A DNA stretch of 60,862 nucleotides, the filler included, from Jimgerdemannia flammicorona (Eukaryota): assembly GCA_003990765.1 (NCBI GenBank). It is 3 parts of 3 records of this genome, joined end to end, with 100 filler letters (N's around TTAATTAATTAA, not from the genome) between each part and the next. Parts side by side here need not be neighbours in the genome. Positions count along the whole stretch, not along the records: positions 20,326 to 40,544 come from RBNJ01001733.1; positions 40,645 to 60,862 come from RBNJ01001734.1; 1 more part is not named here. The stretch is one strand, 5' to 3'. Position numbers and translations under genes: made by a program. How positions within the stretch are numbered: the stretch's first letter is position 1; the number at the start of each line of letters is the position of its first letter. Of the stretch, positions 2,294 to 55,119 are shown one piece after another. Under the pieces are notes generated by a model. It searched no databases. It was not told the DNA's origin and saw only the letters and a list, made by a program, of their open reading frames with translations.

Positions 2294-3516
<1,223 letters not shown>

Positions 3517-20225: not shown

Positions 20226-20325
20226 NNNNNNNNNNNNNNNNNNNNNNNNNNNNNNNNNNNNNNNNNNNNTTAATTAATTAANNNNNNNNNNNNNNNNNNN
20301 NNNNNNNNNNNNNNNNNNNNNNNNN
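20226..20325. other. Scaffold gap containing the artificial linker TTAATTAATTAA (20270-20281)
   Basis: 44 N + linker + 44 N; the same construct occurs at 40545-40644. Confidence 0.95.
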
Positions 20326-24628: not shown

Positions 24629-25083
24629 TATAACATAGCAGATGCTTACTCTTGAAAGTACATCAGATTTCTATATCTTGAATACTTGATCTTTTTGACT
24701 CCTCAGAGTTCTTGGGATGCAGGGGTAGATGAGTTCGAAGTGTATCTGCTCATAGGCTTACTAGTTCCTTTGCTATCTCTTTGCTTTTGAACTATTTCAA
24801 TCTGAGGTTTATTTACTCTAAGATACTGGGTTATTCATACAAGTCTTGCTAGCTATAAGGTGGTTAAGTAATGGCTCATTCTGCAAGTATTGAATCTTTT
24901 AACATCTGCTAAGATTTCACTAATTGTGAAGATTCTAACATCTCCAAATGTTAAAGTTTCTGCACTTTGTAGAATATGGCTGCTATTTTATGAGGCTAAG
25001 CTATATTGGGAATTAGATTCAGATATTGGAATAAAATGTCTAATTTTCCTGTTTCATGTTACTAATTCAGATCAGCCATCACA
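24629..25083 (-). repeat. 3' LTR of A2
   Basis: Direct repeat of 30865-31330; begins TGTGA on the minus strand right after the PPT. Confidence 0.92.
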
Positions 25084-25489
25084 TCTTCCTTCTGAATAGG
25101 TGATTTGTCTCAGGAGTATCCTATTCACTTGAATTTCCAGGCTTCTATGATTGTATTTCCTTATACTGTGCGATTTGTATCATTACATTCTTCCAATGTT
25201 ATCTCTTGATATATCCAAAGTCTTCTGGGGTTACTCTTCAGAAATGGGCTAAGGCTAACTTGTTGTCTTTGAATAACTTATACACTCTTTTTGCAATTGT
25301 GACCTGAGTGTAGGAGAGCTGATATTCTCTGATCCAGTCTTCTTTTCCCATCTTTGGTTTTGAATTCAGTAGCTGTCTCAACTTGAAGTATTCCTGGTAC
25401 TCGATTTGGTTCTAGTAGGCCTTGAAATGTGAGATTTGTGACAGGTGTGTTTGCACTATACTTTGGATGCTGTCAAAGGATTCTTCCAT
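25079..25489 (-). pseudogene. Extra ~136-codon ORF between integrase and the 3' LTR of A2, function unknown
   Basis: MEESFDSIQSIVQTHLSQ..EYFKLRQLL..TIAKRVYKLFKDNKLALAHF*RVTPEDFGYIK..; the internal stops are all explicable as C-to-T changes of Gln/Arg codons. Confidence 0.55.
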
Positions 25490-25579
25490 TATTGGTGGCT
25501 CAGTAGAACACCACTATCTTTCTATGGCTTGCTGGGCAGCACTAGTAATTCTGAGGGCAGTAGTATTACTTCTGACTAG

Positions 25580-28500
25580 TCATAATTCTTCTTGAGTCAG
25601 TTTCAGTAGATGGTAGTGGGGATGATTGTGCCTGAGAGTTTTTGTAGCCAAAAGGTGGTCCCTTTTATATTTTGCACAAGGTAAGGTCCTTCCTACTTGG
25701 GCTCCAGTTTTCATGATCATTTGGCTTCTACTATATTCTGATATACCAGAACTTTGTCTCCTATCTTGATAATCTCCAGAGGTTTGTGGGTCTTTTCTGC
25801 ATTCTTCCATTGTAGTACCTGTGACTTTGTTATATAATCCTCAGCCTTCTTCCTGATTTGGTGTAGTCTCCATATTTCTCCATTCACATGTTTCCATATA
25901 GTATCTCTATTGGATAATAGGGTTTCTCAGGAACTTTCTTCTCTGAACAGTATTTCTCAAGAGGTAAAGTGGGTACTTTGTGATCTGATATTCCAGAGAG
26001 CAGATAATACTATTGGCAGATAGTGATACCAGTTTTCATAGTTATCACAGATCTTAGTAATAATATTCTTGAGGGTCTTATTAGTCCTTTCTGCTAGTTC
26101 ATTTACTTGAGGGTGATAGGCTGTGGTCTAAATGTGCTGGATCTTATACTTCTTATAGAGAACCTTGAAGTACTGGTTCACAAATTCTGTTCCTCTATCT
26201 GTAGTTACTTGTGTTGGGGTCTTGAACTGGCAGATTATTTCTTTGTGGAAGAAATTGGTGATTGACTGTGCATTGGCTTGCTTGAGAGGTCCTGCTTCTA
26301 TCCATTTTGTAAAAAGGTCTACGATAACAATGATATATTAGTTGCTAGTCAAGATCAAGGGTAGAAGGCTAATTACATCCATTGCTATGTGGGTGAATGA
26401 TACTGGTTCTATGTGTGCTGATCCTGGGGCTTGGTTTCGTTGGTCTTGTTTCTGTTTCTGGCATTTGTCACAGGTTTTGAAAAATTGTCTGATATCTTCC
26501 TCTATTCCTGGCCACCATATCATTCATCTTGCCTTGTCGTATGTATTCATTCCTCCTAGATGACCAAGTTCATTTACTGAATTCATTGCTTGCTCCTTCT
26601 TGTATTCTGGTATGACTAGTAGTTTTCCTTTCTTCAGTATTTCTCCATCAGTTTCGAATTGTTTCCATGTTCTGTTGATAATCATTTGTATCCATTCCTC
26701 CAGATGTTGGGGCATCTTTCACTGTCCCAGATATGTGATGATTCCATAGTAGAGCTCTTTATTCATATTTGATTTATTGGTTGGAGGTGTTTTGAAGTGT
26801 CTGTGAGAGAGCATCTGCATTGGAATTTGTTCTTCCAGGGCAGTGTACAATGGTTACATCATAGGCTTGTAACTTCATTATCCATCTGGTGTAGATTCCT
26901 TTGGATGGTCCAGTTGTCAGTAGCCAGGTGAGAGCTGAGTGGTCCATCTGAATGGTGAAGTGTCTTCCAGTCAGATAGTAGTGGAATGTTTCCACAGCCC
27001 AGATGACTGCAAGGTATTCTAACTTGTAGGATTCATATTCTTTTTCAGCTCCTTGGGTTCTGTGGCTAAGGTATGCAATGACATACTCTTTTTTGTCTTT
27101 CTTTTGAGCTAGGACCACTCCTAGTCCCTGTGCACTTGCATCTATCTAAAGGATAAACTCTTGAGTCCAATTGGGTCATCTGAGGATGGGTATCTGGGTC
27201 AGTCTGTCCTTGAGTTCATTAAATGCTTTTTGTTGTCTGCCAGTCCACTGGAACTTGGTGTCCTTCTTGTTGAGTTTGTAGATTAGACCTGCAATGTTGG
27301 AGAATCCTCTAATAAATCTATGATAGTAGGAGGACAGTCCCATGAAGGCTTGGGCTTCTATAACAGTGGTGGGCCTTGGGTATGCTGCTACTGCTTGTAT
27401 CTTGAGGGGGTCTGTGTATGTTCCATCTCGATTGATAATATGGCCAAGATAGGAGATCTCGATTTATGCAAATTTGCATTTCTTGGACTTGATGTACAGA
27501 CCATACTTTCTTAGTCTTTTCATTATCTGCTGTATGTGCTGCAGATGTTCCTCAGGTGTCTTGCTGTAGATAATTATATTGTCAACATAAACCATCATCT
27601 ATCTTCCCATGTCATAGTGGAAGATTTTGTTCATCATTCACTGGAAGCTTGCTGGTGCATTGTACATCCTGAATGGCATTTGTAGGTAGATGTAGGTTCC
27701 ATCTGAGGTGATGAAGGCTGACTTTTCACTTGCCATTTCTGTGAGTCCGATTTGGTGGAATTCTGAGTATAAGTCTAAGGTGCTGTAGTATTATACTTCG
27801 TCTCCCAGTGTTATAAGGATGTCACTGATGAGGGGAAGTGGTTGGCAATCCTTCTTGGTAACTGCATTGAGCTTGCTGTAGTCAACACAGAGTCTTGGGG
27901 TGAATTCTCCAGGCTTGCTTCCTTTTTTCAGAGCTAGTACAACTGGTGAAGACCAGGGGCTGCTGGCTTCTTTGATAATACCGACTTCTTCCATCTGCTT
28001 GATTTCTTCTCTGAGCCATTCTCAGTAGGCTGGCGGAACAGGTCTTGCCTTTTGGTAAATTGGTTTGGTGTCTCCAGTATCTACCTCATGATAGTAGTGT
28101 GGAGTCTTTCCTTTGATATCCTTGAAATCCATCACAAGGACATCCTCAAATTCATGGAGTATTTTCTTGAGTTCCTCCTTAAGTAGAAATTTATTTCCAA
28201 TAGTGTAACGGTGCTTATTTGTGGTTTTCTCCTTCTTATGCTCCAGTTCAGTGATCTTGGTACTGGCAGATACTCCTCTTTCTGTAGATCTGAATTCTTT
28301 CTTTCCTCTTTTCATTTCCTCCAAATTCTTGACTTCTATGATCCTTGGTTGTAGGATCAGAAAGATCAACATCTGTGCCAATCAGTCCTTCTTCTTGACT
28401 AGGAATGGGATTGTAGGATTGTGATTCCTAGTAATGAGCAGGATTTCTCCAGTATAGTCAGAATCAATGACTTCTCCTTCAATAGTAATTTTGCTTCTGG

Positions 28501-30800
28501 CCAGACTGCTTCTTGTCTTGAGGATCCTGATATGATCCTTTGGGATAGTCATCTCTAGTCCAGTTGTGAGTAGGGTGGTTGTCTGGGGTTCCAGTACAGC
28601 TTCTTCTACTATGGCAATGTCCATTCTGGCTGCATTTTCCGACTTGTATTCTGGCAAGACTGCATCAATCAGAGTAGGTCCTTCGAATCTTGACATTAAT
28701 TTCTTCTTCATCATCACTATCCTCTAGGAGGGCTGGTGGTTCATCATCTTCCTCCTCCTTCTCTTCTTTAATCTGTTTTTTGAGAGCTTTCTGTCTTCTT
28801 TCCTGGGGGCCTTCTTGATTCTGATGGTGCACTGGTAGTAATTATTGATATACTCCATACAGTACATCTTGATCCCATGAGGACAGACTCCTTATGGTGC
28901 ATAGCCTTCTGCAATCTTCTTATACCATTTTTCTTCACTCATCCATCCAACTTTCTTCTTCAGAGTAATCACCATATAAGCTTCCTCTTGCTCACTCTCT
29001 TCTTCCTCCATGTCAGGCAAGACTCCTTTGTTGATATTGATGAAAATTCATATCTTCTGTCCCCAGTAGGTAATTTGCATCTTCTGAGTATTGAGATTGA
29101 TTACTGCCCTGGCTTTGTGAAGCCATTGATTGCTGATGAGGATGTCATAGTTGGTGGCATTGGTTATGATTATATCTACTGGGATAGTTGCTCCTCCAAT
29201 CTTGATGGAGATATCTCAGATCTTTCCCAGAGGGGTGGCTCTTGTGCTGTCTGCTATAACAAACACCAACCTGGTTACTTCTTCAATCTCCCAACCTAGG
29301 TGGTCTGCTGCTTTCTTGCTGAGGAGACATTCTCCTGCTCCAGTATCAATGATGACTTCAAAGACTCTATCTTTGATTTGGTATGTTGCATAGGCAGAGG
29401 TTTTGCAATTGTCTTTACTTTCTTCTCCTAAGTCCTCTTGAACATTGTTGGCCTCAGTTATCTTCCATCCTTGTTCTTTGGTTGTTATGGTAAGTCTGAA
29501 CCTCATTTGCTGTCTGAATGTTAGAATTTCTGTGAGCTAACTGAAGGTTGCATTGACCTTTTATTGGCTAAGGTTCTTGAAGATATCATACTTGAAAGTC
29601 TTGGTCTTGCGAAGTTTCTTTTCTTTTTCTCCTTCACTGGCTAGAGTGGTTCCTCAGATAATATCTTAAACTGCTTGCTCCAGCTCCATATCTTGGTCTG
29701 TCTCTTTGACTTGGCTTTCTGTGGCAGTTTCCATCTACTTTTCTATTGGATTCTTCTTGGGTCTTCCTGGCAGTCTCTTGTAGGGTTCCTTGTGAACATC
29801 CTTCTTGGTAGTCTGAGCAGGATAGGCCTCACATTCTTTTCATCAGAATCTCCAATTTCTTCAAAAGTAATTGTATTGGCCTACTTCTTGTTTCATGCAG
29901 CATTGCTTGGTTGGGCCTTGTGCTTGGTTTTTCTCATACATTCATAGGAGTAGTGGCCTTCTTCTCCACAGGTATAGCAGGTACCTTTCTTCTTATCCGA
30001 GGTGGCAGCAAACTTCTGAACTGGGTGGCAGTTTCTTCCTTGGATTTTCTTTACCACATCTCCCAGGTGGGTGGTCATTTCAGCAAACCTCTTGACAAGT
30101 TCCTCCATAGGGTTGCTGTTCTTTTGCTGCTCTGTAGCTTTGGGCTGAGGTGTGTTTCAATTGATTATTATAGTAGAGATTACACTGGTTGCCTTGAGTG
30201 CTTCAATTCTGACTCCTGTGACTCTCTCCATTGTGTGGTCTTGTGGATGTCTGGCTATCCAGTATCACTGAGGATAGATAACCTTCTGTGGCAGATCCAG
30301 AATTACTGGTGATAAGCAGATAGCCATGGCTATTTTGGAGTAGACTCCTTTCATGAAGGTTGCTTTGGCTACTTGGTCTTGGATAGTATCAGCATAATCT
30401 GCAAGGATTATCTGGTATCAGATTCTTGTATAGAATGTGTTTGGATCTTCACTCATTCCTTGGCATATTGTATTGAGTTGATCCTTTAGAGCTTGCTTGA
30501 TCTCATCTGTATAGTAGGTAGTTTGAAGCCAGGTCTTCTGTACTGTCAGTGTAGCTTCAGCATCATTTCCTGTATGAGTTACAGATGTGAATGCTGCTCT
30601 TACAGGGTTTTGTAGGCTAAAGAGCATAAGGGCTACTTGCTGTGCTGCTGTCAGGGTCCTTACAGTGGCATACTGCTTGAAATTATCAATAAAGGTGATG
30701 ATTGATTCATCTGAGATATATCTGTAGAATACTGGTGGTCTCATATCCATCTTATCTAAGTATTGGGGCTTGGTTTGTATAGTTGTTCAGATAGTGGCAG
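25580..30800 (-). pseudogene. A2 gag-pol pseudogene
   Basis: CYTCGEEGHYSYEC; IIDTGAGECLLS; RT SPWSSPVVL..RLCVDYSKLN and YVDNIII; RNase H KLEYLAVIWAVETFHYYL..MDHSAL; integrase GHLGG..CDKCQ..AMDVI; many stops from C-to-T changes. Confidence 0.92.
28280..28710 (-). pseudogene. dUTPase domain of A2 (between protease and RT)
   Basis: Motifs 1-5: AARMDI, TRSSLA, EGEVIDSDYTGEI, LAQMLI, RGKKEFRST. Confidence 0.88.
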
Positions 30801-30864
30801 TTGTTTATTGTTCAGCTTGAAAGTGAGGGATTTGTCTTGAATCATCAGTCAATGGGCACCAAGT

Positions 30865-31330
30865 TGTAATGTAGCAGATGCTTACTCTTAAAAGTACATC
30901 AGATTTCTGTATCTTGAATACTTGATTTTTTTGACTCCTCAGAGTTCTTGGGATGCAGGGGTGGGTGAGTTCGAAGTGTATCTGCTCACAGGCTTACTAG
31001 TTCCTTTACTATCTCTTTGCTTTTAAACTCTTTCGATCTGAGGTTTATTCACTCTAAGATACTGGATTATTTATACAAGTCTTGCTAGCTATAAGGTGGC
31101 TAAGTAATGGCTCATTCTGCAAGTATTGAATCGTTTAACATCTGCTAAGATTTCACTGATTACAAAGATTCTAATATCTCCTAAATCTTTGCAAATGTTA
31201 AAGTTTCTGTACTTTGTGGAATATGGCTACTATTTTATGAGACTAAGCTATATTGGGAATCAGATTCAGGTACCATGATCAAATGTCTAATTCCCCTGTT
31301 TCATGTTACTAATTTGGATAAGCTGTTACA
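30865..31330 (-). repeat. 5' LTR of A2
   Basis: TGTAAC...ATTACA termini; followed by the PBS-like sequence. Confidence 0.92.
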
Positions 31331-31901
31331 ATAGCTATATTTTGGTTCACTTATAAATAATGATCAAGATATTGGTAATTTACATTGGGAAAACTTTAGA
31401 CCATTTTGTTAGATATTCTATAAATACTAAGATATAATTATTTCTTTTAGTATAACTGGCCAGTGTCTGATAATGTCTATTTCTTATCTTTAGAAGATAT
31501 AGACTAGTGGTATAATTGATTGTATTAGTACCTGATAGTTCTTCTTTTCTTAATACTTCTGATAGGTATTTATTTCTTGAGTATATATCTAACTTATATT
31601 CAGAGGTTAGATAAGTATTAGTATATTATTCTTAGCTTTTATTCTATATTTGTCTGTCCTTAGTGGGCCTTCTGGTGTTCTTATCAGATAAGGTCTTCTT
31701 GTACTTTGATAGCTATGAGAACTTCTTTTAGAGTTTAGTACTAGGGTAAACTCTTCTTCTAATTTATTAGAGTTGGTATGAAAGTATGTCAATATTGTTG
31801 TAGAATTTCTCTGCTTTGCAGATAATAGTCCTATAGGATCAGAATCCAGTAGATAAGAATTTCAATTAGTTCATTATAGTTAAATAGTCATTTGAGAGTA
31901 G

Positions 31902-33226
31902 TGTAATGTACTTGGCTCAATGGAGGCAAATTATAAGGTTAGGGGTTAATGTAGTTTGGCTTAAGCCCCTAGTTACTTTGTTAAAAGCAACAAAATGTTC
32001 TTAGTATTTAGTGGTATAATAGTCAAAACGGAATATCTGTGAGTATTTTCCTTATTGGGATGGTTCTCTGGATGCAGCAGCAATTTGTGTGTAAATGGAT
32101 TTCCTTCTTGGGAAAACTGAGAATTGGTGGAATTTATATGTAGCATGATAATCTCTGTATGGCATGGTAGATTCCTTATGTAATTTCTGGGTGACAATCT
32201 TGTGTAGTATGATGAGTTCCTTATATGTGATTATCTGGCAATTTGGCAGTTCTTCTTATACAGTTTCTGCATGACAATCTTGGTAGACTTCTTTATGCAG
32301 ATTTGGCAGATAACTTGATTTGGTGCAGATTTACTGAAGCAGCAGCTTACTGAGAATTATACTGGTGGCAGATAACTCAATAACTCAGGTTCACTGGGAA
32401 CAATGAATAACTTGAATAACTCAGATTTCATGGACTTCTTCTGAATTGACAGGGTTCTAGAATAATAACTCAGGTGGTACAGGTTCTCTTGAAATGCAGA
32501 TAACTTGAAAACAGCAGATGATATGAATTCTCCTAAGTCAGCAGGCTTCTGGGAAATAACTCAGATAGCACGAATCCTTCCTGAATTGGTGGCTTCAACT
32601 GGGAAACATGCTGGCAGCTTCTTAGAAAGGGTCTTTTGGCAAAGTTGCATCAAAGACTGGCTTCATTTGTACAAACAGATCACTGTGAAGTTGTATTAGA
32701 AACTGGCTTGAGCAAGGCAGCTTTCTCTTAGGTGGTAGAAACTTGGGTTCTTCAGGCTTATCTGGCAAGTATACTAATAACAATAATTCCAAAGGTAGCG
32801 AAGTTCTTTCTCAGACTTGGTGGCAAAATCTTCAAGCTTTGTATCAGAAAGTAGACCAGGGTGAGAATAAGGGAACCAATGCTCAATCTTTAGAGACTTC
32901 TTTGGTTTGCACTTCAATTTGGACTGAGGTTTATTCACTCTTATCTCTGGGGTAATTTATATAGTTGTGGTTGCTATGGGTTACTATGTTGCTAACTATA
33001 GATTGCTAACTATGGCAAGTATTCCTTGAGAGTACAGTATACCTTGAGGGTATAGTATACCTTGAGGGTATAGTATACCTTGAGGGTATAGGTAAACATA
33101 CTGTTTCTGGTATCTCTGGCTAAATATATAGATTGGTGCAGTAAAGCAGTCTTGGTTGCTTAGTGCACTAGATATAGTATGTGGCTAATTTATGATTTCA
33201 GCAGTACAATTCTGTTGCTTATTATA
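31902..33226 (-). mobile_element. Solo LTR family D (D2) inserted in pol of E; TSD GTAG/GTGG
   Basis: Reverse-complement homolog of D1 along its length; flanks differ by one transition. Confidence 0.8.
33024..33091 (+). repeat. 18-bp tandem repeat x~4 in the U3 region of D2
   Basis: (ccttgagggtatagtata)n. Confidence 0.88.
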
Positions 33227-34889
33227 GTGGTACAATCAGTTATCAGAGTGAATTTTTTCTAATAAAGTAGGGCTTAAACAGAGTGACTGTCCATATGACT
33301 ACAAGATATTTCAATTTGATGATATCATAGTTAGCTTACAGATTGTTGGTAGCTCTTCTTGCATAAGCTATCATATAGTACTACAAATCAGATTCTTCTT
33401 AAACTAAAACTACTCTGAGACTATTTTTAGAAATATCTTTATATAAATGAATAGCTTCTGTAGACTGAGTTGTATAAGAACTGATACTGTAGTTATATAA
33501 TATTTGAGTTCTTTGAAGGCTAGTTCTTAAAACTTCTTTTATTTATATAATACTTCTTTCTGAGAAAGATTTAAATTAGTATATCAATTTGGATACAATT
33601 CTTAAAATCTTTGATAGTAAGATACTAGCATTAAGAAGGATAGTACTTCTTTTAGAGTTTTAGATACTGGCCAGTTATTGATCTTCTCAGTTTTTTTTAG
33701 ATCTATATGAGTTTCTCCTTCAGAGACTACAAATCTAAGAATTTTAAGGTTCTATTTTTTAAAGTAGTATTTCTTAATATTGAGTCTCAGATTGTTATTT
33801 TAAGTAAGATGGCAGAACTATTTAGATATTGTAAATATTTTCCAAAGTTGGCTGAATAAATGTTGGAGCCATCTATATAGACAATCAGACAAGCAGAATA
33901 TGAATTAAGTTCATTATCTTTTAGAAGTTTAGGAATATATTGCAGAGTTTAAAGAGTAGTTGAAAATATTCAAATAGTTTTTCTAGAGCAAGAAACACTG
34001 TCTTTTGAATGTCATTAGGGTCTATAGAGATCTTATAGAATTCTATAAAAAGATCTATACTACTAAAGTATTTCACATTCTGTAATTAGTCTAGGTAATT
34101 ATCAATTTAGAGCAGAAGATATATAGATAATCTTATCTATTATTGAGTTGAGTTTTCTATAATCTACACAGAGTCTCCATTCTTCTTTCTTGGGTAAAAT
34201 AAGTATGAGCTGATCCAGAGACTGAAAGAGGGTCAGATAACTCTATTATCCAAGAGTTCTTAAATAGATTCTTTCTCAAACATCTTTAGATAGTAAAATA
34301 TTCTATAAGGCTTCTGTTAGATGAGTGTTGCATTTTCTGTATTTATGCTATAGTAGTATAGTGGGTTATATGGTAGATTGCCATAGTTTATAGTAAAGAT
34401 ATTCTAATATTTATAAAAGAGTTCTACTAGTTGCTGCTGTTACTGAGGTATCAGTTTTTCTCCAATGTTAGTGAATGGCTTCACTTTCTCCTGAGTCACA
34501 GAGAGGTCTTTTCTTTTTTCTGAGACCTTTGGCCATTTCTCAATAGATTCAGTTCATAGACTTCTCTGTGTATCTGATAGAGATAGAGCACCAGATGGTC
34601 TATAATAGTTCCTTTTGGTAGAATGAGGCTGTCCTAGCTCCAATTGATTGCTCAAGAATGTATAGGGTTTATCTTATTGAAAAATATGTATCCTTCTATA
34701 TCAAGGTTTCTGAGATCTTCATTTGATTTGAAGAAGAGGTTTCTGGAATCTAGTATTATGAAGATTTTGAAGATGGTCTGTTCTCTTAATTCTAAGATGA
34801 GATTCTTGAAGAGTTTGACTGGTTGGCAGTATACTTATTAAAGTACATTCTTTTTGAAGTGATTGACTTAATGAAGATATATCTCCTTT

Positions 34890-35245
34890 TTGTCAAAGTA
34901 TCTAAATCCTTTAGTCATTCTTATATCTTATATCAATTTAGGAACTTCTGAAGTTAGAGTGTCTTACTCTTTATAAAGACAGCTTGGAAAATTTTCTCTC
35001 CTCTATAGATTTAGATCTATTCAGTACTACTATTCTTCAGAATGACCTGGATTTTACCTATATATCTGGGGTCTATTGTTTCTCCTTCTATAGTGACTTC
35101 TTATATTACACGTCCAGATCTTGAGGTCAGTTGAATGTAAGTTCCTTTGGGTGACTACATGGGAAGTCTTGTACTTAGAATTACTATACTTTCAGAACTG
35201 GTAGTTTTATCTCAGAAACTGCAAAGATTATAGTCTATATTTTCC
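34890..35245 (-). pseudogene. dUTPase domain of element E
   Basis: DYNLCS; PKGTYIQLTSRSG; TIEGETIDPRYIGKIQVILKN; RGEKIFQAVF; RMTKGF. Confidence 0.8.
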
Positions 35246-37610
35246 TTATAGACTTTATTTAGAATTCTAGTATCAGAGTATAGCAAGATATACTGTATTA
35301 TTTCTTTACTAAGTATAAGTTGTCCTTGGACTATGGCTCCTGTAGTTGTAAGTCTCTATACTTGATATTATAATATAGCTATCTGACTCTAGTAGAGATA
35401 TCTCAGAGATAATTAATTTCTCTCTTTTCAGAAAGATCTAGGGCTTTAATAACATTGATGGCATTCTTCATCTACCTCTGATAAGTTGTATGTCTAATTA
35501 GAGTTAGGATATCATCTCTCAGATTATAGATCTTGAAGATCTTTTTTGTAGGTTTCTTGGCTTAGTTTTTTAAATCCTGGCTCTGCCAACTCCTCTCTTA
35601 AGTATATACTTTGTTATCTTAGCTGAGGTATATCTTATCATACTAGTAGGTTTAGCAGCTTGGGTTTTTTCCATAGTAATAGTATCCTATTGCTTAGAAA
35701 TACTGTTTTTAGTTATCAATTTCTTACTATCTTAGAAATCAGTAACTCTCTCTATCCTAGGTAGAGAGAAGGATAGCTAAGAGCTATTCTTCTATATAGA
35801 TGAAGTGATCTCTTCTATAGAATCATTTTATCAATATTATGATTATTTCTTAAAATATAATTATCTATATAATATTACTAGAGATACTGATTCATAGTTT
35901 CTTTATCTTTCTTATAAATCCTATAGATAGCACTAATAGCAATAGTCTTGGGAGAAATAGAAGACCATTTGAAGCTGATATCTTCTTAGCTAAAAGACTC
36001 TTTTCAGGTTCATTTCTTTTTTGAAACAATAGTGACTATACTTGATCTTTCTTCAGTATTTCAGAGATTATTATCTTCTGATAATATATATTTAGTAAGA
36101 ATCATCTTAAGAGATTAGCTCAGAAAGTCTTCTGGTTTAAGAACTTCTTCATTAGTTATTTTTTGTCTCCAGATTGCTTTTACTTCTACTGCTTCAGTTA
36201 TAGGTATCTTTAGTGAGTAATTGCATTTCTTCTTCCTTCTTCTATATTTTGAGCATTCTGAACTAGGAGAGGTTTTTGTGCTGATGATCTTAGAGAAGTG
36301 TTTAGAGTATTTATATCTTTTAAGAAAAGTGGAGCATTCTTTAGATTGTCCAGCAATGGCTCTAATTATAATAGAGATAGTATCTTATATCCATATATTA
36401 TCTTCTGATCTGTTATCTATTATATTGTTTTGCAGATAAAGTCTAGAGTTATTTTTATCTTCAGGTTCTTCCTCTTCCTTTATAGTTAATTCTTCACTAC
36501 TCACATATTCTTCTTAGATGATAACTTTTTACTTCTTTTTAGATTACTTAGAGCTATTTATCTTGATTTGGTACACTTTTTCTCTAGAGTTGAATTTGAG
36601 CACCTATTGATTATTATTATTGACTATATTCATTTCTTTCATCTAGTTGATATCAAGATTATTTATAAGTAATAGCTTTAGTAACAACAGTCTTTAGAAT
36701 AGAGAACTGGATGTATCTGAGAATAATAGTGATATTTTGCACTTCTCCTAAGGGTTGAGTTTGAGCTCTATCTGCTACTCTGATATTGAGGTTAGATATT
36801 CTATCAATGAGTTACTGAAGGAGTTCTATGAATCTTTTAATAATAATATAGATAGCTGCTCCTATATCAAAAAGGATTTTTACCTTCTTTTCTTTAATAT
36901 CTCTATGTAGGTATATATTGATATTTATATCTCTTAGTAGTTTAGATGATAATAGTTGATATAGGTTCTTATTGTAGAATTGAGACTCAGCCAGTACTAG
37001 ATCTAGTAGTTCTCAGTAGTATATTTCAAACTCCAGCAGCTATAAATTGTAAAATTACAAAAGAGGAACTTCTATCTTAGCTTTTGAATCTTTTTTTAGA
37101 CTTTATTGTAGATGTCTTAAGATATAGTCTTCAAAGTATACTTTTCTTAATTTTTGAGATTATTGACTCTTGTCTTTCTTGCTCCATCTCTTTAACTTCA
37201 GGTAAAGATATCTTTTATAAGCTGTAGTTTTAGAGATAAATGGTGAAGAAGATTGGAGAGGTATTTAGATCTGCTCTTTCTTATCTTCTCTATCTTCTTT
37301 CCAAATAGTTCTTCTGCCAACTATTCTAGATAGCCATCCTACTGGTCTTTTTCTTTATTCAATAGAGTAGACTTTTTTCTTAGAGAAAATCTTGATCAGA
37401 TATAGGTCTAAATTACTGTAGTTTTTACTATTAGTTTCTTCAAAGTCTTCTACAGAGTAGGTATCAGTCTTCTTATACTGAGTTACATTCTTTTAATTTT
37501 GTGGTTCTGAGTATCTTTGGTTACTTATTCCATTATTATATTCTGTAGTATAGTATCTGAACTATCTACAGTAGAAGTATTAAACTTGTGCTCTATCTTG
37601 GAATAGATAT

Positions 37611-37710
37611 TGTAACATGCCTGGCTCAATACAGATAAATTAAAAGGTTGAGAGTTGGTATAGTTTGGCTTGAGCCCCCAGTTACTTTGTCAAAATGTAA
37701 TAAAATATTC
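37611..37710 (-). mobile_element. Terminal 100 bp of a family D LTR (D3), inserted in gag of E and truncated at LINE C3
   Basis: tgtaacatgcctggctcaat..tttggcttgagcccccagttactttg matches 31902-32000. Confidence 0.8.
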
Positions 37711-40544
37711 TCTCTCTGGAGGCAGGAGGGTTTGTCTGTGGGTGTCCATTGGATGAGATTGAAGGAGGCTGTGAGGGTCTACTGGGGAGGAGCTGGTAGA
37801 GAGGCTGGGAGACGGAGGAGGAGGCAAGTACAGTGTGCCTCAAATAGGCTGAGAAGATTGCAGTTGGAGTGGGCTGATTTGCTTACATTCAATGAGATGG
37901 AGGATTGGAGGTTAGAGAGGGCGAAATTGGAGGTAGTAGAACTGCAATGGGTGTCAATGGAGGAGGAGGAGACTCTTATGTGAGGAATGGCTGCTAGGCT
38001 CCAGTGGCAGGGACTTGAGGAGAGAGAGCAGCCTACTAGGTACTTGTCTAGGCTCCTGAAGGCCAGGAGGGTGAGGTATTGGTGGGATGGGGTCTTTGAT
38101 GCTGAGGGAGAGTTGGTGTATGGCACACAGCAGATCCTGGGGGTATTGAAGGAGAAATGGCAGGGTCTGTGGAGTGAGGAAGAAGGGGGTGCTGATGCAG
38201 AGGCAATTGACAACATGCTGGAGAAGTGGAAGCCACCACAGGTAGAGGGACTGGGTGATTTGATCTTACCAGTCCAGGAGGAGGAGATTCAAGGAGTCCT
38301 GGTGGCAACTAAGCTTGGGATAGCACCAGGGGAGGATGGATTACTGTGGGACTTCTGGAAGAAGATGGCAAAAGTTCCTGGAGTACTGGGAGAGTTGGCT
38401 GCCCTCTGTGACCATGTTATTCTAAATGGCATGTGGGTTGGAGAGCAGGACTTAGAGCTGGTGGCCCTTTTGTACAAAGACAAGGGCAGGCACAAGGATT
38501 GGAAGAACTGGGGGCCAATCATGCTTCTGGATATGGACCGGAAGTTGGTGACTAAGGTGATTGTTGTGAGGCTACAGAAGGTTGCTCAACAGGTGTTGGG
38601 TGAGGAGCAGCAGAGCTTTGTAGGAGGTAGACCTATCAGAGATGGGACTGCCTGAGTGCATGGCATTATTGAAGGAGCCAGAGCCTGTGGACTGGATGGT
38701 AGACTGGTCTTTTTGGACCAGAAGAAGGCCTATGACTGTGTTCAGTGGGTTTGGCTGGGCAAGGTGCTGGACAGAATTGGTGTTCCACCATAGTTTCAGG
38801 CTTCTATGTTGAGTTTGTTGGAGGGGAGTAGAGTGGTGCTAATGTGTAATGGTCACAGGTGTTTGGCATTTCCCTTAGGGAGAGGAGTCCCTCAAGGAGA
38901 CCTGCTGTCTCCTATTATTTATGCCCTCTCCCTAGAATCTTTGATGGACAGGATCCATAGGAAGATGACTGGACTCTCTGTGTATGGTGTGGAGTGGAAG
39001 GTGGGGGCCTTTGCAGATGATATGGTAGTTGGACTTGGGTCAGTTGCAGATGTCGAGACTCTTCAGGAAATAGTGGAATAGTATGAGGCATACTCTGGAG
39101 CTAAGCTCAACTGGCATAAGTGTGAGATGATGGTGTTGGGGAATGGGCTCATGAGAGGGGACATCATCGGAACAATTGTCCCCACAGGAGAGGTGGTGCA
39201 GTATCTAGGTATCTTCCTTTCTGTATATGGATCAGTACTGCCACAAGTATGGTGGGAGAGGAGGGTGGTCATTTGGGGGGAGGCTCTAAAAGGTTGGGGG
39301 GGTCATCACATCTCCCTGGTAGGGTGGGTGATGATTCTGAATGGTTACTGGTTCCCCAAGCTGTAGTATGTAGCATATCACTTAGACTTTCCAGCTTGGA
39401 TGGTGAAGAGGCTGACGAAACTGGCTAGGGGTTGGATTTGGGCAGGTAAAAGGGCCCAGATCAGTTGGGATACCCTTGTAGAGCCAGTACTTAGGGGAGG
39501 CCTGGGCCTTGTTGATTTCCCTAAGTGATTACACTACCTGTGAGCTTGATGGTTGAGAAGAGCTGTTGATCTACAGGGTGGAGGCTGGGTACTGCTGATA
39601 CAGAAGGTGTGGGAGATGAGATTTTCCCCCCGGGGGTCCTTAGGGGATCTACTCTCTTTGGTGGGTCTGAATGGGAGCTGACGGATATGGTATAAGGGCT
39701 TCTGGTGGGGTGTGGTAGATGGAGCACACCAGATAGGCCTGCACTGGTATGGCAATGAGGGAGAGGTGGTATGGGGCCCAGCTATGTGGCAATGCGACTA
39801 TCTGCTTCTAGGGAGAGTTCCACTTACTGAGTTTGATATTGGGAATAGAGTGGAGTGTCAGCAGAGAATTGGCCAGGATCTTTGGCTGAGGAGTTGGCAG
39901 GCAGTGCAGATTGGTGAGGAGTGGAACTGGGCAGGGATTTGGTCTTGGGGTGCAGAGGTGCAGTGGTGGCTTCCTCCCAAGTTCTGGGTAGTGTGGTGGT
40001 AGATGCTGCGGAGGAATGTTATGTTGAATTTCTGGGCTGGGCATCTGGTGGATGGTGGTTGGCTGGATTGTGAGAGTGATATAATGTAGGGCAAGCTGGT
40101 GGATTTGTACAGATACTGGATCATTGGCTGGGCGAGTGTGAGGTTCTGGGGGACTTTTGGATAGCTATAGGGGACTGACTAGGGGTTGAAAGAAGACCAG
40201 ATGGACAGAGGGGTCAATGGGAAGATTTGGAATCTAGACTTGTGGGAGGTGTCAGCAATAGGTTGCTTACTGTAGGGTGGGTTATCGCAGTGTGGGTGGG
40301 GTTGGCTGGACATTGGCTCTTTGTTTTTGAGGAGGGACGACAGATAGAGGATATGGGAGAAGTTGCCGAGGTGGGAGGAGTTGGTGGAGGATCTGCTGAC
40401 TGGGTGGTGGATTGGATTGGGACCCCAAGGTGGGTGTCATTGCCATCTGGTGGTCAGGATCTGTGAACAGAGTGGTGGGTGGGTGGAGGTAGTGTTTGAT
40501 AGAGTAGTATTTCATCAAGAAGGGGTAGAGGGGGGGATAGAGAG
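37711..40544 (+). mobile_element. LINE piece C3: RT and C-terminal part of ORF2, running into the gap
   Basis: APGEDGL, NWGPIMLLDMDRKLVTK, GVPQGDLLSP, AFADDMVV, YLGI. Confidence 0.92.
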
Positions 40545-40644
40545 NNNNNNNNNNNNNNNNNNNNNNNNNNNNNNNNNNNNNNNNNNNNTTAATTAATTAA
40601 NNNNNNNNNNNNNNNNNNNNNNNNNNNNNNNNNNNNNNNNNNNN
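40545..40644. other. Scaffold gap containing the artificial linker TTAATTAATTAA (40589-40600)
   Basis: 44 N + linker + 44 N. Confidence 0.95.
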
Positions 40645-41008
40645 TTCAGTTTGACTCAGCTTCATGATCAAGCAGGTGATTTCCAGATTTGTTCAGAGGT
40701 CGCGTGTGATTTCAGTGGCTTGTTCAGAGGGTGACATGTAATTTCGGTGGCTTGGAGGTTGTGCGCTTACAACTCTCCCCTTCTTAGCTTTTGATATTCT
40801 CATCGGAGCCTTCTAATTTTGTTCAGTGGTACAGAGACAATAGGCTTGCTTTCAGTTTTGCCATTTTTCCAGAGGATCAGTATTCTTGTCTTGGTTTGCT
40901 GAGTTCTTGATTTGGTTTGTGATAATTATACTTGTTCGGGAGGATAATATATAGTATGTTCAGATAGGTGTGGAGTATTTGGTTCTAGTTGTTCAAGGAA
41001 TCATATTC

Positions 41009-44000
41009 CTAAACTAGGTCAGTAGCATTCTGGAGATTGGTCTTGGGTTCCCAGGTTGCATCATGGATTGGGTAACCTTTCCATTTGACAAGGTACTCAG
41101 GATGGTTCTTGTTGCCACATTTGTTGAGGATTTGTTCAACTTCGTACTCTTCTTGGTCATTAATGATGACAGGTACAGGTGGTTTGGTGGTCCGGTTTGG
41201 AAATAGCTTGTCATCATTCTCATTATATCGCTTGAGATGTTGAACATTAAAGACTGGGTGAATCTTAATGGTGTTCAGTAGCACCAGTTTGTAGGAGGTT
41301 GGAGAGACTTGTGTGATGACTTCAAATGGTCCAATGAACTTGCTGTTTAGCTTAGTAGATGGTCTGTGCTTGAGGTTGTCAACTTGGTATCCTCTGATGT
41401 CTAGTAGGACTTTTTCTCCAATATCAAAAGTTTCTTCTCAGCGGTGTTGGTTAATATACTGTGATTGTTATTCTTGAGCTTATGATAAATTCTCGATGGC
41501 AATCTGGCTTAAATTGCGCATTTGGAGTAAGAATTCTTCAACAGCTTCAACTGTGGAGGGTTCTTCAGTGGTTTGGATAAGTGTCAAAGGGGTGTTTGGA
41601 TTTTGTCTCATGTTGGTGAAGAATGGGGTCATTCCAAGAGAGGCTTGTTTGCTATTGTTGTAGGCAAACTCAACTGTAGTGAGGTGTTCATGCCAATCAT
41701 CTTGTTTGTAGGAAACATAGTTCCTTAGTATTTATTCCAGAGTTCGGTTCATTCTTTCAGTTTGGCCATCAGTTTCTAGATGAAAGGCTGTGGATAGTGC
41801 AAGTTTTGTTCCAAGGTGTGTATGGAGGGCTTTCCAAAAGTAGCTGGTGAATTTCGGATCTCGGTCACTAACAATGATCTTAGGAAGACCATGATAGCGG
41901 AAGATGTTGTCAAACAAGAGTGTGGCTATGTCTGGTGCTATTGCAGTAGTGGTAGTAGGCACAAAGTGGGCTTGTTTGCTGAGATAGTCTATAAAGACAA
42001 CAATTGCATCTTTCCCATTCTTGGTTCGGGGTAGTTGTACAATGAAGTCCATAGAGATTTGTTCCCAATTTGCAGATGGTACTGGGATAGGGTGAAGTAA
42101 GCCGGGTTTTGCTAGTGTTGAGAACTTGTTTTGTTGGCAGGCATCACAGGAAGTGATATAGGTTTTGAGTTGATCTGCCATATAGGGCCAATAGAAGTTC
42201 CGGGAGATAACTTCATAGCATTTGTCAAATCCTAAATGTCCAGCTGTAGGGGTATCATGACATTCGAATAGGATAGTCCTTCAGAGGTCTCGGTTGTTTG
42301 GGACATACAATCTGTCCTTGTAGTAGATAGCATTGTCCTTAAGTTGGTATTGATTGTACATACCAGGTATGCTTGTCAGCATCATTATTGTTCAGGATTT
42401 CTTGGAGTACCTGAGCTTTCTTATCATCAGTACATACTGCAATGATTTGTTCCATGATAGTGTTGGTAACCAAGGTCAGAGTTTGGATAACCTCTTCGAT
42501 TGGTGGTCTGGAGATTGCATCAGCAACAATATTTTCCTTGCCAGGGTGGTACTGGATTTCGTAGTCAAAGTTGGTGAGGATTTTCATCCATCTGGCTTGC
42601 TTTTGGGAAAGGGTAGCCTGTGTCTTGATATTGACTAATGACTTGTGGTCAGTCAATATGGTGAAGTGTGCTCTTTCTAGATATGGTCACCATTTGATCA
42701 GAGTGTCTACGATGGCTAGCATTTTCTTCTTGTGAGTTGCGTAGTTGATTTTGGCATCATTGAACTTGTGGGAGTGATAGGCCACAGGGTGTCCTTCTTG
42801 CATGAGCACTGCTCTAAGAGCTAGGTCAGAGGCATTAGTAGTGACTTCATATGGTAGGGCAGGGTTTGCTGCTTGAAGTACTGGTGTGGTTATCAGGGCA
42901 TCTTTCAGTGCTTGAAAGGCAGTATCTTGCTCGGGTCCCCAATTTACAAGATTGTTGAAGTCTTTCTCTTGTTTCATGGTCCAGGGTTGTTCTTGTTTCT
43001 TGCTGTGCTTGGTCATTTGGGTGAGGGCAGTAGCGATTTTAGCAAAGTTGGCAACAAATCGCCTATAATAGTTTGCTAATCCCAGGAATGACTGGAGGTC
43101 TTTCAGCTTCTTGGATCTGGGCCAATCCTTGATTGCAGAGATTTTGCTGGAGTCTACTTTGATTCCATTTGGGGTGACAATGTGTCCAAGGAATTGAATT
43201 TCTTTCAGGAGAAATTCGCACTTGCTGAGTTTTGCAAAGAGTCAGTTTTCTTGGAGTTTCAGTAGGACTAGTTCAAGGTGTTCAAGATGTTCCTCCAGGG
43301 TTTTGCTGAAGACTAGGATGTTGTCAATGTAGACAACAACAAATTTGTCCAGATATGGGTGCAGAATAGTATTCATCAATGTCTGGAAGGTTGCTGGGGC
43401 ATTAGTTAAGCCAAAGGGCATAACTAGGAACTCGAAGTATTCATAGTGAGTTCGGAAAGCTGTCTTGTAGATGTCTTCTTCTTTCATGACAATTTGCCAG
43501 TAACCATTTCACAGGTCAAAAGAGCTCATGAATTGTGGGTTGGTGAGCCTATCAAATATTTCATCAATCCTCGGTAGTGGGCAACAGTTCTTGATGGTCT
43601 GTTCATTGAGATCGCGGTAGTCAATGCACATTTGCAGGTCTCCTCCTTTCTTGACAACAAAGAGGACTGGTGCACTATAGGGTGATATGCTGGGTCTGAT
43701 GAATTCTTGTTCTAGGAGTTCATCAATTTCTTTCTTGAGTGCATTGATTTCTCTCGGAGACATGTGGTAGATTGACTTGAAGGCTGGTTTGGCATCTGGA
43801 ATAGTCTTGATTGCATAGTCTACTGCTCATTTGAGAGGTAGGCCTTTCAGGAGCTTCTTTGGGAATATGTCTCGGAATTTCTGGAGTAGTGGTCTGACAT
43901 GGCTGTCAACTTTGGAAAAATCTTCTTCAGAGTTCTCGGGTTCTCCTTTGGATGGTCGGATGGAGATGGCAAAGAGAGGGCATTTCTTGGCCAATTTCTT

Positions 44001-47000
44001 GAGTTGTAGCTTGTTGATGTGGGTGATCTTTAGTCCAGGGTCACTAGAGTTGAGTGAGTCCTTTTCACCTTATAGTTTGAAGTTGTGGCGTCCTTTCTTG
44101 ATGGTCAGAGAATGGTTTACCCAATCAATCATGGGGTTTTCTTGTTTTAACCATAGAGTCCCAAGGATGATTTCATTGTCAGAAAGTGGTACGATTTGGA
44201 GAGTAACATGTACTCAGTAGTCGCCAATTTGGAAGAGTAGATTGTGGACTTCTTTGCAAATAACATGTGAGGTTCCATCAGCTGTAGCAACTGCTTGAGT
44301 TTGCTGTACTGGAGAGGTGAAGACCTTGAGTCTGTTGGTTGTCTCTTCATTGATGAAGTTGCCTGAGGTGCCACTCTCTATCATAATCTTGACAGGTGCT
44401 CTGTTGACAAAAGCCTTAAGGGTGAGCAGTTTGTCTGATCCAATGGTGGTGATTTCAGTTGTAGGAGCCTTTCTTCTGTTGGTTCTTCTTTGAGCCAGTT
44501 CGTTGACACAAGTGAAGCAATCGTCAATCATTCGGGAAGAGTACATTCTAATACCATGAGGGCATCAGCCACTTGGTACATATCCATCTTCAATCTTCTT
44601 GTAGAATTGTTCTTCTTTGTTTATAGTAGGTTGGGCTGGGGCTTTGTTTGATGAGCCAAATCCTTTGGATCCTCGGATGGTGGGCAGTAGTTCAGGGACT
44701 TCCTTGACTATCAGGGTTGACTCAATTTTTTCGAATAGGATCTGGGTGATGCAGAAGCCAATAGGGATCTTGAAGGATGTCTAACTGTGGTTTCGAATGA
44801 GGACAATAATTTCGCCTGTGTAATCCTCATCAATGACTCCTCCTTCTACTGAGAGTTCTTTTAATGCTAGGCTGCTGCGACAGCATATTCTTCCAACATG
44901 TCCTTCAGGGATTTGGATACTGATTCCTGTATAGACTTATTTGACTTCTCGGTTGGAAACTATAGCTTCTTCGGCTACATACAGGTCATATCCGGCTGCT
45001 TTTTGACTTCCTTTGGTTGGGGCCTTAGCAGTTTGTCTTAACTTGACAAAGTCTAGTGTTCTGGTGGTCAGGTTGTTGAGGTGGTGAAGAGTGGTAACAG
45101 TTGCTCGTATTGCTGTTCGGGGTTTTCGGTTGGAGCAGGCACTGGCTATGTGTCCTGTCTTTCAGCAATAAAAGCATGCTCCACTTCTTCAAAGTTCATT
45201 CCTTTCGCCTTCAGTAAGTTTCTTGAAGGTACTGGGCTGGGTGGGTTCAGGATTTCTGGGTGTCCATGAGGTGGATGTGGAGGGAGCTCGGGATGCTTCA
45301 TGCTTGGGTTCTTCTTTCTTGGTCCAAGTCCTTTCCTTGTTGTTAAATTGTCTTCAGGGCAGAATTGGTCCAGCTGTTAGGATTCGCTTGACCATAGTCT
45401 TGATTCTTGCCAGGCACCATTGTTGGTGGTCACAACCAACTGGACAGCCTTGCTCTCAGATTTTTCTAGTAAGCCATTCAGGCAGGGCATCAAATAAATG
45501 TTCTGCTCTTGTACCATTTCGTACTTCATCATTGGTAATGTATCCTAGGCCAACAGTGTTCAGGAGTGACTCAAGTTTTGTACAGAAGGTTTCGAATTCT
45601 TCTTTGCCATGTACATCAAATTTGAGGTTGCGGAGTTTTACTCGAGATTCAGCAATCATGGTTTCACTGCAGTATTGGGCAATCATGAGTTGTTTGAGTC
45701 CAGGGGCTGCAGGATGGGCTCCATATCCTGGGGCATTGTTTGCTGCATTCTGAGCAACTACTGCAGGTCGGGTATCCCATGTGAGGGGTTTTTCAGAAAG
45801 GGTTCGCCACCATTCTTTGGCAGGTCCTTGGAAGAATGTAACAACTCAGTGGACAAAGGCTGTAGTGGTAGTAAAGACTTGTTCCAGGGTGTGGTCTTGA
45901 TTGTTTGTCAGAACGCGGTCAGCAACTCACTCATTGGTCCATTGATTGGCTTCAAAGTTGGTATCAACTACACTAATAAAGCTTTGGACTTCTTGTGCAG
46001 TTCCATTGAAGGTAGGTAGGCTCAGATTTTTGGTAGGTCAGGTCTGTTCAGCTAGGGCAGTGATGGTTGCTGCCATTATATGTAGCTACTTGGGCTGTGA
46101 GGGCTAGAATCTGTTGGTTCGCCATGTTGTTTACTGGAGGCGGTTGGACTGCAGATAGTGGTGTTACTGGTACTACTTGAGGTACTGGTGCAGAGTGTGA
46201 TGGGGTTCATTGGGTCTGTGTAAGTTGCTGGAGTAGTAGTTGTGGATCTGGAGTAAGGGCTTGATAGATAACTGTTTGTTGCTGTGTAGGTGTATTCTGT
46301 CCTGATGGAGGTGCTTCTCCTTCGGTAGTATATCTGAGATCGAATTCAGTGAGATACTCCTCCTCTTCTTCGGTTTGGTCCCCATGTAATTGGGTTTACT
46401 CAGCATCAAAGTATATGGAATCAGTTATATATCTGATTTCAGATGGACTTAATTCAAAGTCAAGTTCAGGTTCGGTATTGGTTTCAGATTCAGGTGGGCT
46501 GTAGCAGGTCCTGCTTGTCAGGTAGTTGGTGAAGGGTTTCTCTTGCTTCTTCCTTAAGGATATGGCAGGCCTTACTGTTCTGGAATCGGTAGTATAAGGC
46601 AGTCTTGGTCCTGGTACAGTGAAAGTCGGTAGAGTTGAGCTACTTGGCTACAGAGGCTTGGGCTTCGTGAGGAACTAAGGCTAGAAAGACTGCTGCTGGT
46701 TGTCCTAGGTCGCTCAGATTTGTGGAGCTGACAAAACTCTTGTTGAGAAGAGTAAAGAAGGCTTCAATAAGACCTTCTTCATCCTGACTTGCTGGGTGTA
46801 GTGCAAGGAGTTCAGTGAATAGGGATTCGCCTATTTGCTGGTTTAACTAGAGTACTTCTTTCTTTGAATAAAGTTTATCCCACTTGTTGCAGGTGTAGAG
46901 GTCAAATTGTCCTTGTACATCAGATTCAATTCTCTCCAGATTGTCAGATAGTTCAAGATAAATTCCAGTTCAGAGGTTGGGCTTTATACCAACTTATAGG
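41009..47000 (-). pseudogene. B1 gag-pol pseudogene: gag, CCHC knuckle, dUTPase, CPHG module, protease, RT, RNase H, integrase, chromodomain
   Basis: [96 protein letters not shown]. The gag start is approximate. Confidence 0.93.
44655..45060 (-). pseudogene. dUTPase domain of B1 (between the nucleocapsid knuckle and the protease)
   Basis: KAAGYDLY; TGISIQIPEGHVGRI; RSSLA; EGGVIDEDYTGEI; ITQILF; RGSKGFGSS. Confidence 0.93.
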
Positions 47001-47076
47001 AATTCTCAGAGGAGTTTGTAGTGGGGTGAGGAAGCGTCTTGAAGTGGAATTGGATTGTAAACCGCTGCTACTAAGT

Positions 47077-49119: not shown

Positions 49120-49461
49120 AAACCACTCTTAAGTAAATCCGCTCCCTGTTAGGTCCTACTCCTAACCCCATTACGAAATTTCCTAATTGGGTATTGTCTG
49201 TAGCGATATTCCAATTCAACTAAGCTGGCCTTAGTTTCTTAAACTTCCTGAAATATGGAAAATCCTGAACATCTAGAACTAGTCTGAAAAAAGGACTTTG
49301 GTTGAGATGTCAACCTGATCTTGAAATCAATAAGCATAGAGGACATACTCCATATGATATTGATCTTGACCATAAGAAAACAGTCTTCCAGAATATCCAG
49401 AACCTCTAGAAAACCCTTCCAGAACTATGTAATGGTTACCCTAAAAAGCAACCCTCTTACA
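49120..49461 (+). mobile_element. 3' end of another family B LTR (B2), into which B1 inserted in the opposite orientation
   Basis: Reverse complement of ~47077-47416, ending CCCTCTTACA; no PBS follows. Confidence 0.88.
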
Positions 49462-55115: not shown

Positions 55116-55119
55116 CAGA

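Follow-up and report, generated by a model that had tools for sequence, protein, structure and literature searches.

Several Ty3/gypsy retrotransposon families of Postia placenta encode a dUTPase, which lies at the N terminus of Pol, at its C terminus, or between the protease (PR) and the reverse transcriptase (RT) (PMC2864245). The same paper cites earlier cases from Phanerochaete chrysosporium and Tuber melanosporum and concludes that the domain was acquired independently (Novikova et al., 2010; PMC2864245). The order PR-dUTPase-RT is also described for the rotifer long terminal repeat (LTR) elements Juno, Vesta, and TelKA, with an extra zinc knuckle after the dUTPase in Juno (PMC5408684), and in Entomophthora muscae the dUTPase Pfam family is reported to be enriched together with retroelement domains (bioRxiv 10.1101/2023.09.13.557621). 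In betaretroviruses, a nucleocapsid (NC)-dUTPase lies upstream of PR, and its presence has been rationalized in terms of non-dividing cells and uracil-DNA glycosylase (UNG) (Hizi and Herzig, 2015; PMC4531489). Here we analyze a stretch of 60,862 nucleotides from Jimgerdemannia flammicorona (GenBank assembly GCA_003990765.1), three parts joined end to end and hereafter called the window, which contains decayed gypsy elements of three families, A, B, and E, each with a dUTPase domain in its polyprotein.

That the dUTPase can occupy different positions in the gypsy families within one fungal genome is already published (PMC2864245). PosPlaTy3-3, -4, and -5, like the families of the window, are gypsy/chromovirus families of a single fungal genome in which the dUTPase occupies differing positions of Pol. 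Their position at the Pol N terminus is that of B and their position in the PR-RT interval is that of A and E; the C-terminal position was not seen in the window, and the comparison is one of layout. The order PR-dUTPase-RT, which the initial annotation of the window had attributed to Tuber Tmt1, is indeed cited for that element by Rodriguez (2017; PMC5408684). Tmt1 (Riccioni et al., 2008) and the dUTPase-bearing Metaviridae of P. chrysosporium (Novikova and Blinov, 2008) are fungal gypsy elements with a dUTPase like A, compared here by layout alone.

Three dUTPase domains in three decayed gypsy families

The Pfam family PF00692 (dUTPase) was matched three times, always on the minus strand, by hmmscan of translations of the minus strand between 24 and 50 kb in which stops were replaced by X. 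The A domain (28660-28283; 65.4 bits, E 5.7e-18) lies between PR and RT, the B domain (45029-44649; 109.7 bits, E 1.1e-31) lies between an NC knuckle and PR, and the E domain (35268-34945; 41.5 bits, E 1.4e-10) follows a PR-like segment and a spacer of about 450 amino acids and precedes RT. All three scores are above the curated cut-off of 22 bits. The initial annotation had identified three dUTPases from the sequence alone, and profile scoring at 41-110 bits bears this out, with Pfam positions that agree with the earlier ones to about 50 nt. The remainder of the window was covered by local tblastn and hidden Markov model (HMM) scans; in six frames of the whole window, a local dUTPase HMM built with the A, B, and E rows included gave no fourth domain with an independent E-value (i-E) better than 0.1.

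Motif columns were compared with those of 90 free-standing dUTPase rows. In B, all five dUTPase motifs are intact and near consensus, and the domain contains two stops. The five motifs of A are recognizable, with changes from G to R or E in motifs 1, 3, and 5 and one stop. In E, motifs 1-4 are decayed but recognizable and motif 5 is lost, and 143 codons contain nine stops. Each of the three copies is dead, and their decay is dominated by transitions. The catalytic motifs are close to consensus in B and in 12 of the 12 public gypsy relatives examined. When ranked against the PDB, the B domain scored 88-96 bits with eukaryotic cellular enzymes versus 55-60 bits with those of feline immunodeficiency virus (FIV) and equine infectious anemia virus (EIAV), and the best matches of the A domain were cellular and chlorovirus enzymes, again above FIV and EIAV. 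A model of P0025, an intact relative of B type (P-numbered identifiers denote public proteins recovered by searches with the window elements), had a predicted local distance difference test score (pLDDT) of 92-98 over the dUTPase domain, which gave TM-scores of 0.85-0.95, normalized to the target, with the human, yeast, and Arabidopsis enzymes.

Element A (24629-31331, minus strand) is a complete but decayed Ty3/gypsy element, as judged by its LTR pair, its target site duplication, and the order PR-RT-RNase H (RH)-integrase (IN). Its LTRs (about 24629-25081 and about 30872-31331) are 91.6% identical across 441 aligned nt and have ends of the TG..CA type, the 4-bp target duplication CTAT flanks the element on both sides, and a sequence resembling a primer binding site, TGGTGCCC, and a purine tract are present. 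Along the minus strand, the domains are a CCHC knuckle (29985-29935, in a frame that differs from the rest), PR (29410-29063; PF08284/PF13975), a short cysteine-histidine segment that we call the Z motif, dUTPase, RT (27910-27434; PF00078, E 1.1e-24), RH (RT and RH together at 26861-27910; PF00078, PF17919/PF17917), and IN. A chromodomain was not found in A. The pol reading of 1120 codons contains 25 stops, of which 12 are TGA.

Element E (31899-37711, minus strand), assembled from self-blastn and tblastn pieces, is a heavily decayed gypsy element, the ends of which are uncertain. Its LTR remnants are only about 100 bp long (31899-32001 and 37608-37711), its GC content is 31%, and its observed/expected CpG ratio is 0.03. 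The recognizable order on the minus strand is a PR-like segment (36967-36665; tblastn E 4e-7 to the PR of P0279), a spacer of about 450 codons, dUTPase, and, by tblastn, remnants of RT (34508-33446) and RH (33467-33255). No Pfam family is listed for the spacer between PR and dUTPase (35307-36665), nor for the spacers of the A-like public proteins P0277-P0279, in which a separation of 275-617 amino acids between PR and dUTPase recalls that of E.

Element B (40705-49120, minus strand), defined by Pfam domains and self-blastn, is a gypsy element of chromovirus type. The 5' LTR occupies about 47077-49120, and the 3' LTR was not seen because the sequence enters the N runs at 40545-40644. The order is gag with an NC CCHC knuckle, dUTPase, Z motif, PR, RT, RH, IN, SH3, and chromodomain. 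The knuckle (45176-45135, minus strand; C..C....H....C, with one stop) immediately precedes the dUTPase and shares its frame. Pfam places PR at 44438-44088, RT at 43652-43176, and the whole series of PR, RT, RH, IN, Tf2-type SH3, and chromodomain (PF00385, E 8e-15) at 41000-44438, all on the minus strand. A single frame runs from gag through RH and changes once before IN; the gag-to-RH reading (42342-46076, minus strand; 1245 codons) has 16 in-frame stops, of which 13 are TGA.

The initial annotation had compared B with Mason-Pfizer monkey virus and mouse mammary tumor virus, and the order NC-dUTPase-PR of B does parallel the betaretroviral layout (PMC4531489). In both cases, the dUTPase would adjoin a nucleic-acid-binding knuckle upstream of PR. 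The common feature is the domain order only: the betaretroviral NC-dUTPase is a gag/pro trans-frame product (PMC4531489), whereas B is in one frame from gag to RH; the RT of B groups with those of chromoviruses, unlike that of betaretroviruses; and in the PDB list the B dUTPase scores higher against cellular enzymes than against the retroviral enzymes of FIV and EIAV.

Self-blastn of the window (E ≤ 1e-10, at least 100 bp) gave no nucleotide match between A and B, A and E, or B and E, and the identity of A to B is 33-34% across RT-RH and 34-35% across the dUTPase. Together with the Pfam assignments, the self-blastn result and the divergence of RT uphold the view that three distinct gypsy families each carry a dUTPase, and that it occupies two polyprotein positions, PR-dUTPase-RT in A and E and zinc knuckle-dUTPase-PR-RT in B. 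A and B belong to two clearly separate lineages, and E can be placed only tentatively beside A. The identity of the domains, the conservation of their motifs, their order, the distinctness of the families, and their decay are established here.

The A and B families are each represented by a second copy, on the plus strand. A2 (7361-10038), which comprises a 5' LTR, gag, PR, and Z motif (9747-9896; HMM match, i-E 6e-12), is 75% identical in nucleotide sequence to A 31333-28667. It is broken off by a B-type LTR (10040-11407) at the point that corresponds to A nt 28667, where the dUTPase would begin; because A2 ends at the first dUTPase codons, it gives no information on whether this copy carried the domain. 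B2 (49120-52922) is an internally deleted copy in which an LTR end is joined to mid-RT, followed by RH, IN, and part of an LTR. It is without the region from gag through dUTPase and PR to mid-RT, so it is likewise uninformative.

Distribution and age of the two layouts

An HMMER search of 1.84 billion representatives with the B dUTPase gave 25,546 matches at E ≤ 1e-3. The best single-domain matches are 44-52% identical to the query, and most are 140-250 amino acids long; two of the ten close dUTPase representatives whose annotation was retrieved are called "dUTP pyrophosphatase." A word-indexed search of long proteins with the B dUTPase region had one match, a non-gypsy fusion. Among sequencing datasets, none of RNA was listed as a match, and the best of DNA were soil and root metagenomes and a coded organism, with shares of at most 0.28.

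With polyproteins as queries, PF00692 was carried by nine of the 120 matches listed for B and by three of the 120 listed for A (12/240). Pfam and local domain mapping assign the layout dUTPase-PR-RT to P0158, P0159, P0167, and P0197, and PR-dUTPase-RT to P0242, P0252, P0253, P0268, P0270, P0277, P0278, and P0279. Frequencies were counted only among matches that cover the interval concerned, and the PR probes detect few of the proteases in the A list. On this basis, a dUTPase lies between PR and RT in 5/94 B-query matches in which both were seen and in 3/15 of the A-query list, and upstream of PR in 4/30 B-query matches with more than 160 amino acids there. These low counts in covered intervals make dUTPase a minority trait among the relatives. 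It is not limited to gypsy elements, since P0149, a copia-type polyprotein (RVT_2), also contains a PF00692 dUTPase; P0005 appears by eye to be a fusion of an RNase H tail with a dUTPase.

The public polyproteins that share either layout have only 38-46% identity with A or B, and the acquisitions of dUTPase therefore predate the A and B families. Because both layouts belong to older lineages that are also found in public data, their co-occurrence reflects the presence of dUTPase-bearing gypsy lineages in this genome. The window is thus probably a nest of dead Ty3/gypsy elements in which three families with a trimeric-type dUTPase in the polyprotein represent established older lineages that populated the genome, rather than fresh captures. 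With it, the fungal gypsy elements known to carry a dUTPase gain three further members, though dead ones, and each of the two layouts occurs widely in environmental sequence data.

Relationships among the elements were examined in an RT tree. Its 41 rows were A, B, and E together with 12 public proteins that carry a dUTPase and 26 that lack it and were selected for full coverage upstream of PR; it was built by a quick IQ-TREE search under LG+G4, with branch support from the Shimodaira-Hasegawa-like approximate likelihood ratio test (SH-aLRT). A joins P0277-P0279 within a nine-row set (SH-aLRT 95) that also contains E and the dUTPase-less P0280 and P0282. The branch to E is very long (2.6 changes per column), and its placement is consequently unsure.

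Several observations weigh against the reading of the window as a meeting place of established dUTPase-bearing lineages. B falls among the chromoviruses with the dUTPase-less P0229 as its nearest neighbor (SH-aLRT 94), so that its link to the other dUTPase-PR-RT elements is indirect and gains or losses of the domain are needed. Layout, treated as a character on the same tree, requires at least four changes. All three copies are pseudogenes, and A is substituted in catalytic motifs 1, 3, and 5. Finally, the presence of the domain in three of three window families exceeds what its frequency of about 5-20% in relatives predicts. This surplus suggests particular success of dUTPase-bearing lineages in this genome.

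By analogy with retroviral dUTPases (PMC4531489), the domain may have been enzymatically active and of benefit to transposition. It would have been produced as part of Gag-Pol or Pol and would have formed a homotrimer via its five conserved motifs. Within the particle, it would convert dUTP to dUMP and pyrophosphate, and this hydrolysis would keep the cDNA that RT makes free of uracil; under low host dUTPase, uracil-containing cDNA would otherwise fall to the uracil-DNA glycosylase repair of the host or would mutate. Alternatively, the domain may have had a non-catalytic role in the particle, structural or signaling, as is discussed for some retroviral dUTPases, and roles beyond catalysis are considered for those of bovine immunodeficiency virus and human endogenous retrovirus K (PMC4531489). 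The near-consensus catalytic motifs that B and all 12 public gypsy relatives retain argue against such a role, which we regard as very improbable.

The Z motif and the origin of the element-borne dUTPases

The Z motif lies between PR and dUTPase in A (28787-28948, minus strand; ..WYKKIAEGYAP.GVCPHGIKMY..C) and between dUTPase and PR in B (44466-44627, minus strand; ..FYKKIEDGYVPSG.CPHGIRMY..C..C), as located by a local HMM. It comprises about 40 residues of the form ee[FW]Y[KQ][KR]I.DG[YF].P.G.CPH.I.MY, followed by 4-7 residues and C..C, or CPH-x12-13-C-x2-C. The 396 proteins gathered in our searches were scanned with an HMM made solely from the motifs of A and B. This HMM clearly matched P0025 (2.5e-20), P0049 (7.4e-20), and P0159 (1e-9) and more weakly matched P0279 (2e-4), P0167 (0.015), and P0277 (0.12); the next match had an E-value of 2.6. 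Thus, 3-6 of the 14 public dUTPase-bearing proteins have the motif, and all six matched proteins carry a dUTPase. With the same HMM, the motif was found in none of 228 dUTPase-less polyproteins and in none of the short free-standing dUTPases. The local HMM did not find it in E.

The order of the two modules varies. The dUTPase precedes Z in B, P0159, P0025, and P0049 (the latter two being B-type fragments with the order knuckle-dUTPase-Z(-PR)) and in L001, a 1345 bp soil-metagenome contig that was the only locus returned by a metagenome scan with the Z alignment and that contains a stop-ridden B-family copy with the order dUTPase-Z-PR. Z precedes the dUTPase in A, A2, P0279, and P0277, and P0167 has the order gag-Z-dUTPase-PR.

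AlphaFold predicts a helix, a hairpin, and a helix for Z, with a linker of low confidence leading to the dUTPase. The pLDDT is 82-92 in context (P0025 residues 211-270), and Z alone gave a mean pLDDT of 84.5 and a predicted template modeling score of 0.62 (six sequences). Z has no Pfam match in A, B, P0025, or P0049, and the predicted structure had no significant match (best Foldseek hit in the PDB, E 1.6; best VIA-align Z score, 3.4); an ESM Atlas search with Z gave no usable match, and no description of the motif was found in the literature searched.

The dUTPase sequences were placed in a tree of 135 rows and 149 columns, in which the free-standing rows are unnamed metagenome proteins. The tree is poorly resolved, with support below 80 for 73 of its 132 inner branches. 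A, B, and E fall apart from one another, A with P0277 (SH-aLRT 76) and B amid free-standing rows. Forcing the 16 gypsy-borne dUTPases into one clade cost 49 log-likelihood units and was not rejected by the approximately unbiased (AU) test (p-AU 0.112), for which we used a 63-row subset that contained every second free-standing row (45/90) and left out E. Of the RT and dUTPase trees proposed in the initial annotation, the RT tree separates the lineages of A and B, and the dUTPase tree is poorly resolved, with a single origin not rejected.

The initial annotation had gone further and proposed repeated capture of the domain in this host lineage, or its exchange between co-resident families, driven by uracil restriction (high dUTP and/or attack of UNG on the cDNA). 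The surplus of the domain described above, with all three families that have a surviving PR-RT carrying it versus about 5-20% of public relatives, speaks for this proposal, and a hint of past exchange comes from the Z core of A, which is identical to that of B at 19/34 positions and to that of P0049 at 21/35 but at only 8/32 and 9/30 to the weak motifs found in the RT relatives of A. The dUTPases themselves do not bear the proposal out. Those of A and B are no more similar to each other than are their RT sequences and no closer than to free-standing dUTPases, with which B shares up to 48-52% identity; each layout is known from distant public relatives; and one origin for the gypsy-borne domains is compatible with the AU test. 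Furthermore, the Z cores of A and B are just 63% identical in nucleotide sequence, so that any exchange must be old. We consider this explanation unlikely.

Two other histories were considered. Different gypsy lineages may have captured cellular dUTPase genes separately, each at its own polyprotein site, as proposed for P. placenta (PMC2864245). The differing insertion sites agree with this, as does the similarity of B to free-standing dUTPases (44-52% identity) and to cellular rather than retroviral enzymes, and dUTPase clades track shallow RT clades, with SH-aLRT values of 96 for the P0242 group and 98 for P0158 with P0025, although only 76 for A with P0277. That both lineages have the Z motif next to the dUTPase, though, is hard to derive from separate captures of a cellular gene, and some of the "free-standing" rows may be fragments of elements, as P0025 and P0049 proved to be. 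Separate capture is a real possibility, with the balance of our judgment somewhat on the side of doubt.

Alternatively, dUTPase and Z may have entered an ancestral gypsy element once, long ago, and later have been moved within the polyprotein, to either side of PR and with Z on either side of the dUTPase, and often lost. The association of Z with the dUTPase in A and B, in P0025, P0049, and P0159, and more weakly in P0279, P0167, and P0277, together with its absence from the 228 dUTPase-less polyproteins, favors this history, and the AU test does not reject the single clade that it predicts. That non-rejection is no support in itself, and in the unconstrained trees the gypsy rows are dispersed, albeit with weak support, amid free-standing rows. 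Moreover, presence of the domain in 12/240 relatives implies many losses, the Z motif was not found in the clade of P0242, P0252, P0253, P0268, and P0270 or in P0158, P0197, and P0278, and independent sources were concluded for the P. placenta elements (PMC2864245). We therefore view a single ancient entry as possible but rather doubtful.

A more speculative proposal, which we put forward tentatively and think more likely to be wrong than right, is that dUTPase and a zinc-binding Z module (CPH-x12-13-C-x2-C with a preceding helix, [FW]Y[KQ][KR]I.DG[YF].P) form a portable unit. Such a unit could sit on either side of PR, with Z on either side of the dUTPase, and could have passed between unrelated gypsy lineages; its Z module would hold the dUTPase on nucleic acid or RT. 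In function, this would resemble the betaretroviral NC-dUTPase fusion and the additional knuckle of Juno; the latter is an analogy to the Z motif of A and B, drawn from elements of other lineages in an animal host (PMC5408684). The Z motif is the sole fresh lead to come from the window, and it offers a handle on whether element-borne dUTPases had a single origin and on the placement of the enzyme within the particle.

Decay pattern and other features of the window

Between copies, transitions outnumber transversions by about 4-6 to 1 and are mainly CA>TA and TG>TA, and the observed/expected CpG ratio is 0.03-0.27 in the elements versus 0.98 in the gene-bearing first 4.5 kb of the window. The decay looks like repeat-targeted change of C to T, and in our reading the pattern suggests an origin that is either driven by methylation or similar to repeat-induced point mutation.

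A further repeat family, with tandem units of about 2.95 kb on the plus strand, occupies 11802-20090, 37997-40537, and 52916-60812. Within it, 11802-14315 and 14753-17264 are 68% identical. The family has an extreme GC skew of +0.4 to +0.5 and an observed/expected CpG ratio of 0.02, and it borders on B-type LTR sequence at several points; a six-frame scan of one unit gave no Pfam domain. A pattern of 44 N, 12 bases, and 44 N occurs at 20226-20325 and at 40545-40644, each time just after a copy of this G-rich repeat. Near the start of the window, at about 2470-3300 on the minus strand, is a nuclear gene with short introns for NDUFS8/TYKY, the 23-kDa 4Fe-4S subunit of complex I. Its exon at 2954-2814 matches NDUFS8 chains in the PDB with an E-value of about 1e-25, and the observed/expected CpG ratio of this region is 0.98.

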